Shown here: positions 6,647-52,291 of the stretch, one piece after another
How positions within the stretch are numbered: the first letter of the stretch is position 1
Layout of the letters: the number at the start of each line of letters is the position of its first letter
Assembly (NCBI GenBank): GCA_030445745.1
Contig: JASUTE010000002.1
Location: 30,859-94,858 of the forward strand
DNA length: 64,000 nucleotides
Origin: Candidatus Cloacimonadota bacterium
Lineage (GTDB): Bacteria > Cloacimonadota > Cloacimonadia > Cloacimonadales > TCS61
Direction of reading: 5' to 3'
Notes under the pieces: generated by a model
Told to the model about the DNA's origin: nothing
What the model saw: only the letters and a program-made list of their open reading frames with translations
Database searches by the model: none
Translations under genes and position numbers: made by a program

Positions 6647-7608
6647 CTCTCCAAATATCCCATATTTTTTAGTTCGTCTAAAGTTTCCTGCTGTTGCTTG
6701 TCAAGCTTTTCTGGCACTGTTCTTTTTAGAAAATTATAGCACCACAGCATTTCATCCAACTGCTCTTTATTCACAGCTAAAATCTCATTTTCCCTATATT
6801 CCGGTAACACCACTGCAAATTCCAAATCAGCAGCTTTTGTCAAAATACCGTTTTCAATTTTATAGGAAGCTCCCGCCAAATTTCCCTTCCAACTTATCTT
6901 CTTAATGGAAAGCAAAAATTGCAGATGCTGGTAATATTCCCTAATAATTTTTATCTGTTTTTTCAGAAGTTCTGCCTGGGAAAATTGTAATTCCGCTAAT
7001 AGCTCCTCCTGTTTTTGTTCTAGTTCTTGCAGCCAGGAAAAATTAGGTCGTAAATAGTATTTTCTTATCAGGTCTTGAACCTTGTGCAACTCCTGAACGC
7101 AGTAACCTAAACATTTATCCTCTTTCAGGCGGTGGCAGGGAAAATCTTCTCCTTCACAGGCCGGAGCTTGCAAAAGTTCGGCAAAACTAGCGATAAGGTC
7201 TAAAATAAAAAAATTACTGCGGAAAGGTCCAATATAGAATTTATCTTTCTGAGTATCCTCAGCAGCCTTAAAATAGGGCACTTTATAAAAATCAATAGCA
7301 AAATAGAAATAGTGCCGCCAGAAATTCAGTTTTTCATTAAATTCTGGCCTTTGTTTATTGATCTGCTCCTTTTCAGTAGCCAATATTTGCAGAGCATTTT
7401 TACCAACATCCCAGTCGATAGTGGTGGTTTGCGAAATAAGCTGAAAAATCACATCAACTTCACTGCTAGCATTAAAAAAATTAGATAAGCTTTTGCGAAT
7501 ATTTCCCGAACGGCGCAAATAAAGTAGCTTATCATCTTTTTTAAAAAAAATTATTCCTATAGTGGCAGGAATTGATTCCAAATTAGCCAATAAATCCTGT
7601 TTTTTCAT
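6643..7608 (-). CDS. UvrC N-terminal-half-like protein (degenerate GIY-YIG, Cys-rich linker, UVR-like helix); Cho-like
   Basis: 321 aa. GIIFFKKDDKLLYLRRSGNIRKSLSNFF resembles the UvrC pattern GVYxFxDxxGxxLYVGKAxNLRxRVxSYF. YIGPFRS..LLQ and C..C..GYC follow, then LQFSQAELLKKQIKIIREY resembles the UVR domain. There is no C-terminal endonuclease or HhH half. Confidence 0.45.
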   Translation of the reverse strand: MKKQDLLANLESIPATIGIIFFKKDDKLLYLRRSGNIRKSLSNFFNASSEVDVIFQLISQTTTIDWDVGKNALQILATEKEQINKQRPEFNEKLNFWRHYFYFAIDFYKVPYFKAAEDTQKDKFYIGPFRSNFFILDLIASFAELLQAPACEGEDFPCHRLKEDKCLGYCVQELHKVQDLIRKYYLRPNFSWLQELEQKQEELLAELQFSQAELLKKQIKIIREYYQHLQFLLSIKKISWKGNLAGASYKIENGILTKAADLEFAVVLPEYRENEILAVNKEQLDEMLWCYNFLKRTVPEKLDKQQQETLDELKNMGYLES

Positions 7609-44616: not shown

Positions 44617-45025
44617 CAGACTTGCTTCGCAAAGTAATGTGAAGCGAGAATGACATAATCTGTTTCTATAGCTTACAAAAACATTGTCATTACGAGTTGT
44701 TCTTCTTGCAAAAACTTTTTCGAAGTAATCTATTTTTTAACATCAGGTTTAGTTACAGATTTATGCGCCGTAAGCAGATTGCTTCACCCATAAAGGGTTC
44801 GCAATGACGGTTTTTTTTGTCATTTCGACTGGAAGTAGCGAAGCTACTGGAATGGAGAAATCTCTCTTTCTCTTAAAACTCTTATGAGATCTCTCGACTT
44901 CACTTCGTTCCGCTCGAGGTGACAATTTAGTTCTCAAGAAACCCCTCTGCTCTGCTACGCAGAGCTCGCAGAGCTTCTCCCCTTAAAAAGGGGAGCAAAA
45001 AATGCTGTCATTCTGCCTGTCTAGC
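44617..45025 (+). repeat. Left long direct repeat (noncoding, hairpin-rich) bracketing the island
   Basis: Colinear with 51718-52167. It begins CAGACTTGCTTCGCAAAGTAATGTGAAGCGAGAATGACA. Internal modules include GTCATTACGAG, GCAATGACGG-T8-GTCATTTCGAC, GGAAGTAGCGAAGCTACTGG, CGAGGTGACAA and GTCATTCTGCC. Confidence 0.9.
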
Positions 45026-45450
45026 TGTTTTATCTCACCGTAGGCTTGGCTGAGGCGGAATGGGCTTGCAGCAAGGGGAAACTACAAATTGACCAGCCGT
45101 TTTAGCCGCCGTAGCTTCCATTCTCCGTAGCAGGATTACTTCGAAGGATAAATTGGCAAGTTAGAACAATCTAAATAATATACAATTCTGGAATGTTAAC
45201 TTAATTCTGTCCGTAAGGAGAGCTAATGCTAATTGAAATAAAGATTTACGATGGAATGATCTTCTATCAAGAGCAGAACAAAAGTAAATCTGGTTTGTTT
45301 GCGTCAATTTAAAAACCAAAAAAATAATTATTTTTATATTACCAAGAAATTAAATTTTTTTATTGACTAGAAACAGTTTTATTTGCAAAATATCTAAGTT
45401 AATATAAAGTGGTTTGAAAGATAGGTTATATCTTAACAGGGAGGGAAACT

Positions 45451-46500: not shown

Positions 46501-47067
46501 ATGCTAAAAGTAATTCTGCTTCTGCTTATTTCGTTCAGCCCTATTTATGCTGATGGCCTGCAATTCTTTCGGGAAGATATTACCTTTGAAATTAAGGATA
46601 ATTTCTTTATTGTAGACGGCTACTACTATTTCAAAAATAACAGTAATAACATTATCAAGGAACGTCTTTTCTATCCTTTTCCCCAAAAGGAAATTTATGG
46701 GGAAGTTGACCTGGTTTTTGCCGATGACTACAAGCATGAACAGCGTAACACCAAGCTACATATCCGGGGAAATGGTGCTTCCTTTATGGTAGAGGTGCAG
46801 CCGGATTCTATTAGCATTATGCATGTGGGCTACCGGCAAAAGATCATTTCGAATCAGGCAGAATATATTCTGGAAACTACCCAAAATTGGAAACAGTCTT
46901 TTCAGCAGGTTAATTATAGTTTGATCTTTCCCAAGAGTTACGCTTTAGATTCACTTTCTTATACACCAGATAGCTTGCAGACACAGGAAGAGAAATATAT
47001 TTTCTACTGGCATAAACAGGATTTTATGCCGCAGAGGAATTTTATAGTTAAATTTGGTAAGGAATAG
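46501..47067 (+). CDS. Hypothetical secreted protein
   Basis: 188 aa with a signal peptide. Its ATG abuts the upstream TAG stop, suggesting translational coupling. Confidence 0.4.
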   Translation: MLKVILLLLISFSPIYADGLQFFREDITFEIKDNFFIVDGYYYFKNNSNNIIKERLFYPFPQKEIYGEVDLVFADDYKHEQRNTKLHIRGNGASFMVEVQPDSISIMHVGYRQKIISNQAEYILETTQNWKQSFQQVNYSLIFPKSYALDSLSYTPDSLQTQEEKYIFYWHKQDFMPQRNFIVKFGKE

Positions 47068-47089
47068 GAGTTTTATTGGAAAAGAACAC

Positions 47090-47178
47090 GTCATTACGAG
47101 TTGTTCTTCTTGGATTAACCTTCGTGTTTAGCAAGTATAATTTCCCTCATTTCACATGGGAGTAATCTATTTTTTAAC
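47090..47178 (+). repeat. Truncated copy of the island repeat family
   Basis: GTCATTACGAGTTGTTCTTCTTG ... AGTAATCTATTTTTTAAC matches the two ends of the module at about 44686-44741, with a different filler between them. Confidence 0.7.
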
Positions 47179-47343
47179 TTTGGGTTGGCTTTTAATGAAA
47201 AAAATAACTAGTTCATTAACTACTTTTGAACTTACAGATTATTTAGTAATTTTTTGGCAAGATAATTTTTTTTAATTGACACCTCTTTTCCAATTAATTA
47301 TGTATCCAATATGAATTTAAACAGAATTAATGAAAAGAATTTA

Positions 47344-47399
47344 GGATATTATGAGGTTTGAATGTAAGGATATTATCACGCCTGTTGGCGGGATATTTT
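47344..47399 (+). repeat. Three direct repeats GGATATT(A/T)T spaced about 23-24 bp apart
   Basis: GGATATTAT at 47344 and 47368, and GGATATTTT at 47391. The last ends 4 nt before GTTGGGC (47403). Confidence 0.6.
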
Positions 47400-47403
47400 T
47401 AAG

Positions 47404-48095
47404 TTGGGCTAATACAAGGAGCAATCAGGAATGAAGAATTGGAAACCCATCAAGCTTGAAGAACTTTCTGGTGATACACAGAAAGTATACGACGTTCTCA
47501 ACACTGAGTCGGATCTGGCATGTGTGCTTATAGGGACAAGTTATCTTTCCGAATTGCTTGCGAATATGATCCAGGAAAGTTTCATAAAAAGCAACATATC
47601 TGGAAAACTTCTGGACCCTCGAGGTGGTTCGATTGGCCAATTCTCTACCAGGGCGGATCTTGCATACTGCTTAGGTCTTATCAAAAAAAGTATCTATCAA
47701 GATCTAAGCAAAATTGCTGTTATAAGAAACATGTTTGCACACAAACATGTTTCATTGGATTTCAATGATAATAATGTCAGAGACCGTTGCGGCGAATTGG
47801 AGGCGTGGCGTATTATGCAAGATAAAGATGCTGAAGAGATAGAAGAACCTTCACTTAAACAAATACACGATTTGACTCGGAATCAGTTCAATCTATCCGT
47901 AATCCTTATTGGTACACGGATTCATTTAGGTGTGTTAAGTAAAATTAACAGCCAAAATAAGAAATAAAAAGCCCAACAATGGCCTTGCACACCGAGCGGC
48001 CTTACGGCGCAGTTTTTTGAACTATAATTTTTATTGGGCTTTCTCTTTTTTTCGGCGGTTTTCGTTGCTCGCTGCCCGTCGGGTGACGGCCAGCG
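47404..48095 (+). mobile_element. Putative integron-type gene cassette carrying the HEPN gene
   Basis: It starts TTGGGC after a G (core GTTGGGC, 47403-47409). AAGGAG RBS at 47416-47421, ORF at 47431-47967. An attC-like palindrome begins with the complement GCCCAAC at 47971 and ends at the G of GTTATTT (48095). Confidence 0.5.
47431..47967 (+). CDS. HEPN-fold protein (MtlR/YggD-like) with Rx4H motif
   Basis: 178 aa, predicted all-helical. Motif IRNMFAH (R-x4-H) lies at the position typical of the HEPN active site, preceded by FSTRADLAYCLGLI. Confidence 0.55.
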   Translation: MKNWKPIKLEELSGDTQKVYDVLNTESDLACVLIGTSYLSELLANMIQESFIKSNISGKLLDPRGGSIGQFSTRADLAYCLGLIKKSIYQDLSKIAVIRNMFAHKHVSLDFNDNNVRDRCGELEAWRIMQDKDAEEIEEPSLKQIHDLTRNQFNLSVILIGTRIHLGVLSKINSQNKK

Positions 48096-48101
48096 TTATT
48101 T
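47971..48101 (+). other. attC-like imperfect palindrome (about 131 bp)
   Basis: R'' is GCCCAAC (fits RYYYAAC). The left arm AAC-AA-TGGCC-TTG-CAC-A-CCGA-G-CGG pairs with the right arm CCG-TCGG-GTG-AC-GGCCA-GC-GTT. Unpaired single bases A47991 and G47996 occur on one strand only. R' is GTTATTT (48095-48101). Confidence 0.5.
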
Positions 48102-48209
48102 TAAAAACTCGATAAGTAGAATCAAACTACTCTTTTGAGAATTATCTTTTTTTGTAATAATTTAAGACATTTCTCATGCTGCATTATTACATAGAGACTT
48201 GTGTGCTTA

Positions 48210-48620
48210 AAGCTAATTGCTTCACCCATAAAAGATCGCAAAGATAGTCACTCTGCTTGCCTAGTAGAAGCCTAGTGCGAAGGCGGAAAGTACTAGATAG
48301 GCAATAAAGCCCAGGACCTTTTTGATAAAACCGAGACCTCTCCACTTCGTTTCACTACGGTCGAGGTGACAAAGCTAATTTTTCCCTAGAGCCTCACAGT
48401 TTTTCTTTACTGTGGCAAGGTAAAACTACAACTTGTCTTGCCGTAGTGTAGCGAAGGCAGAAGTATCTAAATCTAAGCCATAGATCTCAGATGTTCTGTA
48501 GTATGTCTGCGTAAGAATTCCGCAACGTCCTGCGAGTAACCGAAGTTGGCGACCAACGGAAGCCAATTTGGGCGGAACGAAGCGTAGCCAGGTACTCGCT
48601 CTTAGGCACAGGCAAATCAT
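48210..48620 (+). repeat. Diverged colinear copy of the island repeat array
   Basis: It carries the same modules in the same order as the bracketing repeats, including ATTGCTTCACCCATAAAAGATCGCAAAGA and CGGTCGAGGTGACAAAG, plus GCCGTAGTGTAGCGAAGGCAG-type units. Sequence similarity is much lower than between the bracketing repeats. Confidence 0.6.
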
Positions 48621-48624
48621 TTTT

Positions 48625-48825
48625 CTAACCGCAACAACAATTACCTGAGTTAGTGCTCTTTTTATCCTGGCTTGTTATGTCTGGTTTTTTATCCACCTTA
48701 TCAGTATTCTCATTCTTATCATTATCATCGGGAACTTCTTCAAACTGGACGTTGCAACAGCCTCCTTTTTTTGGTTTTTCAGAAAACAATTTGCTTAAAA
48801 ATCCATTTTTCTTTTTTTCTGTCAT
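48625..48825 (-). CDS. Small Cys-cluster protein (GGCC ... GNCCCG C-terminus)
   Basis: 66 aa. A perfect SD (AAGGAGGAAG) lies 5 nt before the ATG, and the gene is 18 nt downstream of the permease stop. It has five Cys in two vicinal clusters and a charged low-complexity linker. Confidence 0.5.
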   Translation of the reverse strand: MTEKKKNGFLSKLFSEKPKKGGCCNVQFEEVPDDNDKNENTDKVDKKPDITSQDKKSTNSGNCCCG

Positions 48826-51717: not shown

Positions 51718-52167
51718 CAGACTTGCTTTGCAAAGTAATGTGAAGCGAGAATGACAAAAGCTGTTTCTATAGCTTACAAAAACATTGTCATTACGAGTTG
51801 TTCTTCTTGCAAAAACTTTTTCGAAGTAATCTGTTTTTCACATCAGGTTTAGTTACAGATTTATGCGCTGTAAGCGCATTGCTTCACCCATAAAGGGTTC
51901 GCAATGACGGTTTTTTTTTGTCATTTCGACTGGAAGTAGCGAAGCTACTGGAATGGAGAAATCTCTTTTTCTCTTAAAACTCTTATGAGATCTCTCGACT
52001 TCACTTCGTTCCGCTCGAGATGACAATTCAGTTCTCAAGAACCCCCTCTGCTCTGCTACGCTTGCCTTATGGAATGCAGCTATGCTGCCGGCTTTGCCGA
52101 TTCCACTAGGGCAGAGCTTTTCCCCTTAAAATGGGAGCCAAAAATGCGGTCATTCTGCCTGCCTAGC
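51718..52167 (+). repeat. Right long direct repeat bracketing the island
   Basis: Colinear with 44617-45025. It has a 1-nt deletion near 51835, T9 versus T8 at about 51910, and an extra insert of about 50 bp (52062-52110). Confidence 0.9.
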
Positions 52168-52291
52168 CGTAGCCTTTGGCGAAGGCTGGAGGCAAACCCC
52201 GAACTCGTTCGACGAAGAATCTAATTCTGAGACACAAAGCCCAGATGTTTCGTCTAAAATTGCCAAGATGAATTCCTCAATATGACGGGCT

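Follow-up and report, generated by a model that had tools for sequence, protein, structure and literature searches.

The HEPN gene near the middle of the DNA stretch analysed here (64,000 nucleotides of a Candidatus Cloacimonadota contig; hereafter, the window) lies within a segment, 47404-48095, that is best explained as a true gene cassette of the integron type that stands alone, a reading to which we give a probability of about 0.85. Units of this kind are termed SALINs, defined as a single attC lacking an integron integrase, with a CDS (bioRxiv 10.1101/2022.09.11.507474). The window holds one attC with its associated CDS and neither intI nor any other att site; a single site in 64 kb does not form a CALIN, which comprises at least two clustered attC without an integrase. 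The cassette consists of TTGGGC, which is half of its own R' box, followed by a promoterless 5' UTR with a ribosome-binding site (RBS), one HEPN ORF, and the attC.

The layout of the unit (Table 1) is that of a cassette throughout. The positions given by the first-pass annotation for GTTGGGC, AAGGAG, the ATG, GCCCAAC and GTTATTT were all correct on re-reading of the sequence. There is a single ORF, which follows a short 5' UTR with AAGGAG and is oriented towards the attC, and the TTGGGC start complements the R'' box (GCCCAAC) of the same cassette, as a cassette start should. At 21 nt, the 5' UTR is too short to hold a promoter within the cassette. GTTGGGC occurs twice in the window and GCCCAAC once. 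Among 148 ORFs of at least 60 aa, the HEPN ORF alone has GTTRRRY upstream and the exact reverse complement downstream, with both heptamers no more than 45 nt from the ORF; upon shuffling of the flanks, at least one ORF with a matching heptamer pair appeared in 2.4% of trials.

Table 1. Features of the HEPN cassette and its flanks (window coordinates; a vertical bar marks the crossover).
Feature	Position	Strand	Description and basis
Non-coding leader	47062..47403	+	Strain-variable along with the cassette; repeat modules A and B, three direct repeats
Repeat module A	47090-47112		In the leader
Repeat module B	47161-47178		In the leader
Direct repeats GGATATT(A/T)T, three copies	47344, 47368, 47391		Last copy ends 4 nt before the crossover
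5' boundary heptamer G|TTGGGC	47403..47409	+	Exact reverse complement of R'' GCCCAAC; predicted crossover G47403/T47404
Gene cassette, 692 bp	47404..48095	+	TTGGGC start, short 5' UTR, one ORF, attC; last base is the G of R'
RBS AAGGAG	47416..47421	+	Within the 21-nt 5' UTR
ORF, 178 aa, HEPN-fold MtlR/MltR family, R99-N-x3-H104 motif	47431..47967	+	ATG at 47431, TAA stop at 47965-47967; Pfam PF05068, PDB profiles, alignment A1
attC, 131 bp including hybrid R'	47971..48101	+	Only R2 and R3 match in the window; homologous to L049 1669-1799
R'' box GCCCAAC (fits RYYYAAC)	47971..47977	+	Starts 3 nt past the stop; identical R'' at the stop of the homologues in L010, L015, L016, L049 and L048
Left (L'') arm TGGCC, T, T, (G), CAC, (A), CCGA, (G), CGG; bulges in parentheses	47980..47999	+	Sequence, constrained fold, R2 alignment
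Variable central loop, 76 nt, AT-rich	48000..48075	+	Contains ATTGGGCTTTCTC (48033-45), rival partner for R'' in minimum-energy folds (inverted repeat I1)
Right (L') arm CCG, TCGG, GTG, A, C, GGCCA	48076..48092	+	Sequence, constrained fold, R2 alignment
Hybrid R' box G|TTATTT	48095..48101	+	Crossover G48095/T48096; TTATTT is flank
Right flank common to window-type and hsdR-type alleles	48096..48182	+	Missing from the L032/L033 allele

The 131-bp site has the palindromic organization of an attC, with R and L boxes and an unpaired spacer, and falls within the 57-141 bp range. In the R box AAC (47975-77) pairs with GTT (48095-97), followed by a 2x2 unpaired spacer. The arms then pair as TGGCC (47980-84)/GGCCA (48088-92), CAC (47988-90)/GTG (48083-85), CCGA (47992-95)/TCGG (48079-82), and CGG (47997-99)/CCG (48076-78). 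This pairing, spacer included, had been listed by the first-pass annotation and is real in every part; one further pair, T47986-A48086, brings the total to 19, with 3 base pairs in the R box followed by runs of 5, 1, 3, 4 and 3. The unpaired A47991 and G47996 do lie on one strand only, as had been noticed, and G47987 joins them, so that all bulged bases are on the R'' arm, as is typical of extrahelical bases, from which an attC takes its polarity. The end boxes fit RYYYAAC and GTTRRRY with AAC/GTT kept, except for the ATTT of R', which deviates from RRRY and is the flank-derived part of a hybrid R'. This deviation, previously entered as a caveat, is ordinary for such boxes; GTTATTT is also the last heptamer of two strong sites elsewhere (L047 6689-6762 and L035 3605-3674).

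Out of 831 R''/R' pairs in the window, only 47971-48101 combines at least 15 near-continuous stem pairs with a constrained dG of -15 kcal/mol or below. Folding, which had been proposed as a check, supports the site in part: boxes and bulges are present in the constrained fold, whereas the unconstrained DNA minimum-energy fold of either strand leaves the long-range arms unused and pairs AAAGCCCAA (47968-76) with TTGGGCTTT (48034-42). The latter pairing is not kept in the homologous L049 site. An internal ATTGGGC (48033), once put forward as an alternative partner, was rejected as R', having an A in place of the essential G, being absent from L049, and scoring at most 5.7 bits with the model. 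As single-stranded DNA, the attC would form a bulged hairpin consisting of the AAC/GTT R box, a 2-nt spacer, four short stems and the 76-nt loop, and this hairpin would be the substrate of an IntI tyrosine recombinase, cut between G and TT. With 2-nt spacers (3-4 nt in the model consensus), a T·C mismatch and its 76-nt loop, the site may be a poor recombination substrate.

An attC covariance search had also been suggested, and it was carried out with our own models R1, R2 and R3, from which all attC model scores given here derive. R2 was trained on 21 sites, all external to the window and including the homologous L049 site; the stricter R3 contains no L049 or L035 sequence; and R1 is a narrow model of 7 sites from one subfamily. 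Training sites were sought with the help of a heuristic attC scanner with forced AAC/GTT pairing and DNA energy parameters, which was not used as stand-alone evidence because of its false positives inside genes. On 21 kb of class 1 integron DNA, R2 called just the two true sites, attC-aadA1 at 39 bits and attC-dfrA1 at 29 bits, and nothing false. In the 64-kb window, on both strands and with filters off, its only significant match was 47971-48101 on the plus strand (22.2 bits, E 0.0018); the runner-up reached 11.3 bits (E 1.6), and thus no second attC was found. R3 also has this site as its sole match in the window, weakly, at 17.0 bits (E 0.065) compared with 25-45 bits for held-out true sites, and R1 effectively missed it (about 2 bits). 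These low scores indicate that the site is divergent.

The family of attC sites is 88% paired, against 26-42% for slid controls, with compensatory changes at 11 of 15 pairs. The directional model matches the plus strand only, and the polarity of the site relative to its gene is the same as that of attC-aadA1. Among the cassette arrays, L017 yielded at least 10 sites with R2, L049 yielded 8 and L010 yielded 4, and every site follows a co-oriented gene; in five non-array homologue loci (about 59 kb in total) R2 found none.

The same HEPN ORF, bounded by the same sites, was sought in other genomes and found in five loci (L010; L015, Smithella; L016, Desulfobacterales; L049; L048), where the genes are 61-72% identical to that of the window. 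Their sources are Desulfobacterota and metagenomic cassette arrays. In the window and in all five homologues, the ATG follows GTTGGGC at a distance of 21-29 nt, and GCCCAAC lies at the stop or 2-3 nt past it; in four of the homologues this GTTGGGC is the R' of a model-detected upstream attC (L010 5913-5971, L015 213-269, L016 9912-9973, L049 1020-1104). The downstream R' heptamers vary across the set (GTTATTT, GTTAGGC, GTTATGC, GTTCTGC and GTTATCT), as is expected of hybrid R' boxes in homologous cassettes. Homologous units occur in arrays L010, L015, L016, L017, L047, L048 and L049. The stretch with DNA homology to 8 homologous cassettes is 47395-48000, and the homologues share no flanks that reach past the unit, which is thus discrete. 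The first-pass proposal of a discrete cassette is therefore upheld by the recurrence of the unit in multi-attC arrays, by homology that ends at its boundaries, and by the sole attC-model match in the window.

The closest structural counterpart is the HEPN cassette of L049, whose 131-bp attC (1669-1799) has the same architecture and a loop of equal length, partly similar to that of the window and without the TTGGGC. Between the two sites the arms have changed in concert (CGCTT/AAGCG in L049 vs TGGCC/GGCCA in the window, and CTGA/TCAG vs CCGA/TCGG), while CAC/GTG and CGG/CCG are kept. Plasmid and phage collections contain only relatives at 28-35% identity. The cassette family circulates in arrays, mainly those of Desulfobacterota.

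The cargo protein matches Pfam MtlR (PF05068; 37.5 bits vs a cutoff of 25.2), a family of the HEPN clan, and the PDB profiles 6kcr and 3brj (MtlR); its NCBIfam MltR score of 41 bits is under the cutoff of 149. R99, N100 and H104 are invariant across the 42-sequence alignment A1, in keeping with the Rx4-6H pattern of HEPN domains. According to these sequence features, the protein is predicted to be an Rx4H RNase-type toxin or abortive-infection effector. It is not half of a HEPN-MNT pair, as the cassette has one ORF and there is no partner ORF between 47067 and 48625; a PADLOC search with the protein gave no match. The mannitol-operon repressors MtlR/MltR (PF05068; 6kcr, 3brj) share the HEPN fold family, and their R-x4-H region aligns with that of the window protein, but the relation is only distant and no mannitol operon lies near the window gene. 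A regulator role is unlikely, since the gene is the cargo of a mobile cassette. The GC content of the ORF is that of the host, and no compositional anomaly was found at the cassette.

Comparison among strains shows that DUF4424 and the arsP block border a hotspot of defence genes that varies from strain to strain. The cassette sits in this hotspot, where three quite different islands occupy the position in co-occurring strains. On the right side, the match between the window and the hsdR-type sister strains L025, L026, L027 and L035 runs from 51511 leftwards to 48094; past 48094/95 these strains have another attC (L035 3605-3674, 36 bits), joined to the same GTTATTT. The breakpoint coincides with the 3' junction of the cassette and was seen on three independent sister-strain contigs (L025, L026, L027); G48095/T48096 is an IntI-type crossover point that the other attC uses as well. 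The flank following it (48096..48182) is 96.7% identical to L025, L026, L027 and L035 and was seen only in this species. Each of the two alleles, window-type and hsdR-type, has one detectable attC. On the left side, the match of L050 and L051 to the window (99.2%) ends at 47061, beyond which the sequences differ; the variable segment thus has its left edge at 47061/62, and no strain breakpoint falls at 47403, the presumed insertion junction. In the L032/L033 allele, modules B and C are contiguous, which defines an indel that, at about 1 kb, exceeds the cassette in size. Exact matches of 17-23 nt link the flanks to repeat-module arrays at 44620-45160 and 51720-52230. Insertion of the cassette into a repeat element was considered and rejected, as these matches define the 1-kb indel relative to L032/L033 and not the cassette boundaries.

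The leader may supply a promoter for the cassette, though a promoter scan of 47062..47403 found no sigma-70 consensus; promoter, attI-like site and left half of an attG are its candidate roles. A metagenome scan with the left-flank 20-mer GCCTGTTGGCGGGATATTTT returned 1 window-type contig and 9 contigs in three unrelated contexts, which is the level of chance. Rfam and tRNA searches of the window returned nothing. As had been stated earlier, the window appears to have no integrase: a tblastn search with IntI1 gave a best E of about 2, i.e., no IntI relative at BLAST sensitivity, and the 64 kb thus lack the adjacent intI of a complete integron. The same search matched nothing in any of the fetched loci, and no intI accompanies the homologue arrays in the L010, L016 and L017 DNA examined. 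IntI may have acted in this lineage, the one pointer to it being that another attC uses the same junction in sister strains, and the genome may carry an intI outside the window.

SALINs occur commonly and arise through attC x attG insertion, for which the target is 5'-GWT-3', cut after the G (bioRxiv 10.1101/2022.09.11.507474). The present copy may have come by this route, into a target ...TTTTTAAG|TTATTTT.... The target as reconstructed, ...TTTTTAAG|TTATTTTAAAAA..., fits GWT, but no empty-site allele was found among the strains compared. An empty site would read ...GGGATATTTTTAAG|TTATTTTAAAAACTCG... and a circularized cassette ...GGCCAGCG|TTGGGCTAATAC..., the latter with GTTGGGC restored.

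Alternatively, the cassette could be the last survivor of an eroded array. This sub-variant of the lone-cassette reading, an alternative to attG insertion, is tentative, although we consider it the best placed of the competing accounts. A longer array, possibly with intI and attI, would have lost all but its last cassette to defence-island insertions and deletions, the window-type and hsdR-type alleles retaining different last cassettes after attC x attC deletions. The downstream junction is indeed common to both alleles while their attCs differ, and CALINs are known to arise by integron decay. In addition, the three GGATATT(A/T)T repeats that abut the 5' crossover may recall attI accessory repeats. 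Such repeats are carried by attI sites, as in attI1; no general model for attI sites is known. On the other hand, the window has neither a recognizable attC nor an established attI upstream of 47403, no intI remnant is found by tblastn with IntI1, each allele has only its one detectable site, and no integron has been described in Cloacimonadota.

Somewhat less probable, and in our view rather unlikely, is that the unit is a genuine cassette that arrived as a passenger, with no IntI ever active in this Cloacimonadota lineage and the attC a fossil. The cassette, the 340-nt leader and the right flank would then have travelled together as a block (47062/47179 to ~48182), delivered by homologous recombination or island exchange at the hotspot through the flanking conserved genes and repeat modules. 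A left breakpoint at 47061/62 instead of 47403, the 1-kb indel against the contiguous modules B and C of L032/L033, the three different islands in co-occurring strains, the weak attC score, the host-like GC content of the ORF, and the lack of intI in the window and the fetched loci are all consistent with such a block. However, two different attC are fused to an identical flank exactly at the G|TT crossover, which calls for a site-specific event, either in the lineage or in a donor that already carried the flank, and flank 48096-48182 was seen only in this species.

A stronger version of the lone-cassette reading, active cassette exchange in the Cloacimonadota population, is doubtful. It holds that the fixed site G|TTATTTTAAAAA (48095/96) takes different cassettes in co-existing strains, the two occupants being the HEPN cassette and an ORF-less unit with a 70-bp attC beside a type I R-M/AAA_13 island. 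If true, it would mean a functional IntI-type recombinase, own or in trans, in a phylum without described integrons, and it would give integron cassettes a way into defence islands that lie outside integrons.

Finally, the possibility that the site is no attC, just a chance arrangement, terminator or REP-like element 3' of an ordinary chromosomal HEPN gene, is largely refuted and very improbable: a minimum-energy fold with different local pairing, a GC-rich hairpin and T run (47996-48018) that could be a terminator, a genome rich in intergenic repeat modules, the failure of R1, and a chance of about 2% per window for the heptamer arrangement alone can be cited for it, but true attC arrays of other phyla show these boundaries again, together with a homologous 131-bp site whose arms have changed in concert, the site is the sole window match of a model that picks class 1 attCs exactly and lies outside the repeat families of the window, and a strain breakpoint falls exactly at G|TT.

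The lone cassette indicates that integron cassettes also turn up in phyla remote from the classical hosts of integrons, with the closest relatives of this one in Desulfobacterota arrays; no integron elements of the phylum Cloacimonadota are described in the literature. It also indicates that a stray cassette can end up in a strain-variable defence hotspot as a one-gene module, a candidate for a defence or toxin function, and the G|TT junction common to two attCs provides a natural test case for the recently proposed attG/SALIN dissemination. The SALIN class, the type of HEPN cargo and the mechanism have all been described previously, so that the known range is extended and no new principle is introduced.

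Among known systems, the class 1 cassettes (aadA1, dfrA1; R100/In2) share with the window unit the R''-L''...L'-R' order, extrahelical bases on the R'' arm and the orientation of the ORF, and one covariance model recognizes both. Unlike them, the window has no IntI1, attI1 or Pc, its attC measures 131 bp compared with 60-95 bp, its cargo is not a resistance gene, and its bulges are G/A/G where the top strand of attC-aadA1 has C/A. The cassettes of sedentary chromosomal integrons and CALINs (L010, L016, L017, L049) are nearer, with the same gene family (61-72%), the G|TTGGGC/GCCCAAC core and the attC architecture. However, these Desulfobacterota-type arrays hold from 4 to more than 10 attC, whereas the window has just one, which scores lower and has shorter spacers.

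With respect to cargo, Esos is a HEPN-only, single-gene anti-phage cassette of a Vibrio chromosomal integron (bioRxiv 10.1101/2024.07.02.601686). As described, both are small integron cassettes in a defence context with a HEPN-like domain as the sole recognizable feature; the protein encoded in the window is of the MtlR/MltR branch and drew no PADLOC match. With respect to organization, the window unit resembles SALINs in having one CDS and one attC, no integrase or other att site nearby, G|TT junctions that fit 5'-GWT-3', and the need for an outside promoter. It differs from them in that Cloacimonadota is not among the host phyla discussed, in its position within a defence-island hotspot, in an attG insertion that is unproven here, and in the use of its junction by a second, different attC in sister strains.

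Together with its flanking sites, the HEPN gene very probably forms a genuine integron-type cassette (probability about 0.85), a reading supported by boundaries shared across taxa, by a homologous attC in the HEPN cassette of another locus (L049), and by a strain junction at the 3' end. The cassette is a SALIN (single attC lacking an integron integrase) in a Cloacimonadota defence hotspot, with a single attC and no integrase within the 64-kb window. The elements listed in the first-pass annotation all lie at their assigned coordinates (see table), and the long-range pairing it claimed is present: AAC/GTT, a 2x2 spacer, and the four stems tabulated, to which the pair T47986-A48086 can be added. 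Unpaired bases are confined to one arm, as had been proposed, with all three (G47987, A47991, and G47996) on the R'' arm.

Features of the HEPN cassette, its attC and the surrounding hotspot
Feature	Window	Strand	Comparison locus	Remark
GTTGGGC	47403-47409	+		read from sequence
AAGGAG	47416-47421	+		read from sequence
ATG	47431	+		read from sequence
TAA stop	47965-47967	+		read from sequence
GCCCAAC	47971-47977	+		read from sequence
GTTATTT	48095-48101	+		read from sequence
attC stem 1	TGGCC/GGCCA		L049 CGCTT/AAGCG	
attC stem 2	CAC/GTG		L049 CAC/GTG	
attC stem 3	CCGA/TCGG		L049 CTGA/TCAG	
attC stem 4	CGG/CCG		L049 CGG/CCG	
70-bp attC			L025/L026/L027/L035	GTATAAC aaatc GTT[G]CACCT...AGGTGAAC taggcc GTTATTT
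Hotspot, DUF4424 to 66-aa/arsP	47062-48094		L035 3605-12135; L050 4930-14929	alternative contents in co-occurring strains

The 64-kb window contains two copies of GTTGGGC and one of GCCCAAC, and among its 148 ORFs the HEPN ORF alone has a GTTRRRY upstream matched downstream by the exact reverse complement. When flanks are shuffled, such an arrangement arises in 2.4% of trials; the heptamer and palindrome arrangement is unusual, and by itself not overwhelming. The proposed pairing was not recovered by unconstrained DNA folding of either strand, which pairs AAAGCCCAA (47968-76) with TTGGGCTTT (48034-42) instead of the long-range arms, so that thermodynamics alone does not pick out the 131-bp palindrome. 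The internal TTGGGC used by this minimum-energy fold is missing from the L049 site. A 12-mer in the attC loop, TTGGGCTTTCTC (48034-48045), is also the first 12 nt of the L048 HEPN cassette (7192-7203, G|TTGGGCTTTCTC...); the match may be coincidental or may be left over from an earlier crossover.

The suggested search for the HEPN gene between the same sites in other genomes found five homologue loci: L010 (metagenomic contig), L015 (Smithella), L016 (Desulfobacterales), L048, and L049. In all five, GTTGGGC precedes the ATG by 21-29 nt, and GCCCAAC lies at the stop or 2-3 nt past it. The downstream R' heptamer is different in every one, as expected if R' is a hybrid of the cassette's own G and the TTNNNN of the next unit. 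In L010, L015, L016, and L049, a complete attC precedes the unit, and the upstream GTTGGGC is its R'; these loci are true arrays of co-oriented small genes with an attC after each. Around more distant homologues (≤57% identity; L011, L013, L019, L020, and L022), which lie among housekeeping genes or adjoin a serine recombinase, attC-type sites are absent. Homologues sharing flanks beyond the unit, named beforehand as a sign that it is not discrete, were not seen: in comparisons of the window with eight homologous cassettes, DNA homology always falls inside 47395-48000, never in the leader (47062-47403) or right flank, so the HEPN unit is discrete. In an Acidobacteriota MAG (L023 9864-10673), a distant homologue of the HEPN protein (31% identity) has attC-model matches on both sides (30.9 and 18.9 bits), which makes the wider family of this protein cassette cargo in a second, unrelated phylum. 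In L016 (10538-11828), the attC of the HEPN cassette breaks off beyond the left arm, where a 400-aa ORF follows in opposite orientation, and in L010 (7498-8038) a Transposase_20 (IS110-family) gene adjoins an attC; both may be attC-targeting insertion sequences within arrays.

The L049 HEPN cassette closes with a site of 131 bp (GCCCAAC...GTTCTGC) homologous to that of the window, with both arms changed in concert. Three attC covariance models (R1-R3) were trained on external sites only. R1 drew on 7 short sites from a single subfamily and did not detect the window attC. R2, from 21 external hits including the homologous L049 site, found exactly the aadA1 and dfrA1 attC in 21 kb of class 1 integron DNA (ends correct, no false positives) and no matches in ~59 kb of non-array loci. 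Run on the whole window with filters off, R2 gave 47971-48101 (+) as the sole significant match (22.2 bits, E 0.0018; next-best 11.3 bits). Because R2 had included the L049 site, R3 was built with all L049 and L035 sequence left out; of the sites left out, it recovered the one in L035 (31 bits) and all eight in L049 (25-45 bits), and it again matched only 47971-48101 in the window, at just 17.0 bits (E 0.065). Covariation across the attC family is strong: 88% of cells are paired, vs. 26-42% in slid controls, with compensatory changes at 11/15 pairs. We read 47971-48101 as a real attC that has diverged: its spacers are 2 nt long, one T·C mismatch is present, and the loop is long. It may be a poor recombination substrate.

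Between DUF4424 and the 66-aa/arsP block, same-species contigs, whose flanking genes are 98.8-99.2% identical to the window, are arranged in three other ways. Four (L025, L026, L027, and L035) align with the window between 51511 and 48094 and diverge to the left of this stretch, with a different 70-bp attC (36 bits) directly left of the common GTTATTT, and a type I R-M operon with an AAA_13 protein ahead of it. Two different attC sites are therefore fused to one flank precisely where crossover is predicted (G48095|T48096), and the 3' cassette junction is a genuine site of recombination. In L050 and L051, the match ends at 47061 and another defence-type island follows (N6_N4 methyltransferase, SMC-like ATPase, Schlafen/AlbA and HATPase_c_4 protein, ResIII/YagJ helicase). 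In L032 and L033, the intergenic repeat modules B and C directly adjoin each other, whereas ~1 kb separates them in the window. These differing contents indicate a strain-variable defence hotspot. No strain breakpoint was seen at 47403 among the compared same-species contigs, and this putative 5' junction is supported only by cross-taxon conservation. Next to the 3' junction, 48094-48339 is 93.9% identical to L025 3369-3612, with a 60-nt indel at 48339/48340, against 98.8% for the adjacent genes, a difference suggesting that the DNA nearest the junction is older or has a history of its own.

The ORF (47431-47967) encodes 178 aa matching Pfam MtlR (PF05068; 37.5 bits, cutoff 25.2) and, by profile, the solved MtlR structures 6kcr and 3brj. 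R99, N100, and H104, invariant across a 42-homologue alignment, form the HEPN Rx4-6H motif. PADLOC gave no match for the protein, and no partner ORF lies within the cassette. The identical protein has a Candidatus Cloacimonadota MAG as its named source. The nearest homologues outside the host species are only 61-72% identical, the named ones being mostly Desulfobacterota MAGs. A perfect 12-bp inverted repeat (47726-47753, GAAACATGTTTG caca CAAACATGTTTC) lies exactly over the catalytic-motif codons RNMFAHKHV, since the NMF and KHV codons are mutually reverse-complementary after a Leu-to-Val change; it is unique to the window copy (stems ≤6 bp in eight homologues).

Two long intergenic stretches of short repeat modules in direct orientation (44620-45160 and 51720-52230; ~7.1 kb apart, ~93% identical over ~345 nt), at both of which metagenome assemblies break, bracket a T9SS-type protein, DUF4424, the HEPN cassette and the arsP block. 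Module pieces also flank the HEPN unit (A 47090-47112, B 47161-47178, C 48216-48232). The leader carries direct repeats GGATATT(A/T)T at 47344, 47368, and 47391 (47344-47399; spacing 24 and 23 nt), the last ending 4 nt ahead of the predicted 5' crossover; these could be protein-binding sites, for a regulator or as attI-like accessory sites. Among the metagenome contigs L037-L046, a leader 20-mer, GCCTGTTGGCGGGATATTTT, recurs in three unrelated contexts (nine contigs), about chance level for a collection of that size. A 66-aa Cys-rich ORF (48625-48825, -; internal GGCC, C-terminal CCCG; no Pfam match on record) lies directly downstream of an ArsP_1-type permease gene (-), and the two are conserved together in all strain variants.

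As first reported, the window holds no integrase: IntI1 has no relative there (best tblastn E ~2) or in any fetched locus. There is no second attC in the 64 kb and none upstream of 47403 in the window; the 340-nt leader lacks a sigma-70 consensus promoter. Single attC sites can be false positives, as IntegronFinder 2.0 warns (PMC9024848), and for this reason the cross-taxon and strain evidence matters here. The cassette may have arrived by attG insertion or be the remnant of an eroded array; it may also have been brought in as a passenger on a larger block. SALINs, 3,400 of which were reported in 21,105 genomes, were shown experimentally to arise when an attC inserts at an attG site (attC x attG) of the form 5'-GWT-3' (bioRxiv 10.1101/2022.09.11.507474). 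As in that route, the reconstructed window target, ...TTTTTAAG|TTATTTT..., fits GWT; an empty-site allele was not found among the compared contigs. In our literature search, no paper connected Cloacimonadota or Cloacimonetes with attC sites. Vibrio chromosomal integrons are known to carry HEPN-only defence cassettes of a single gene (bioRxiv 10.1101/2024.07.02.601686).
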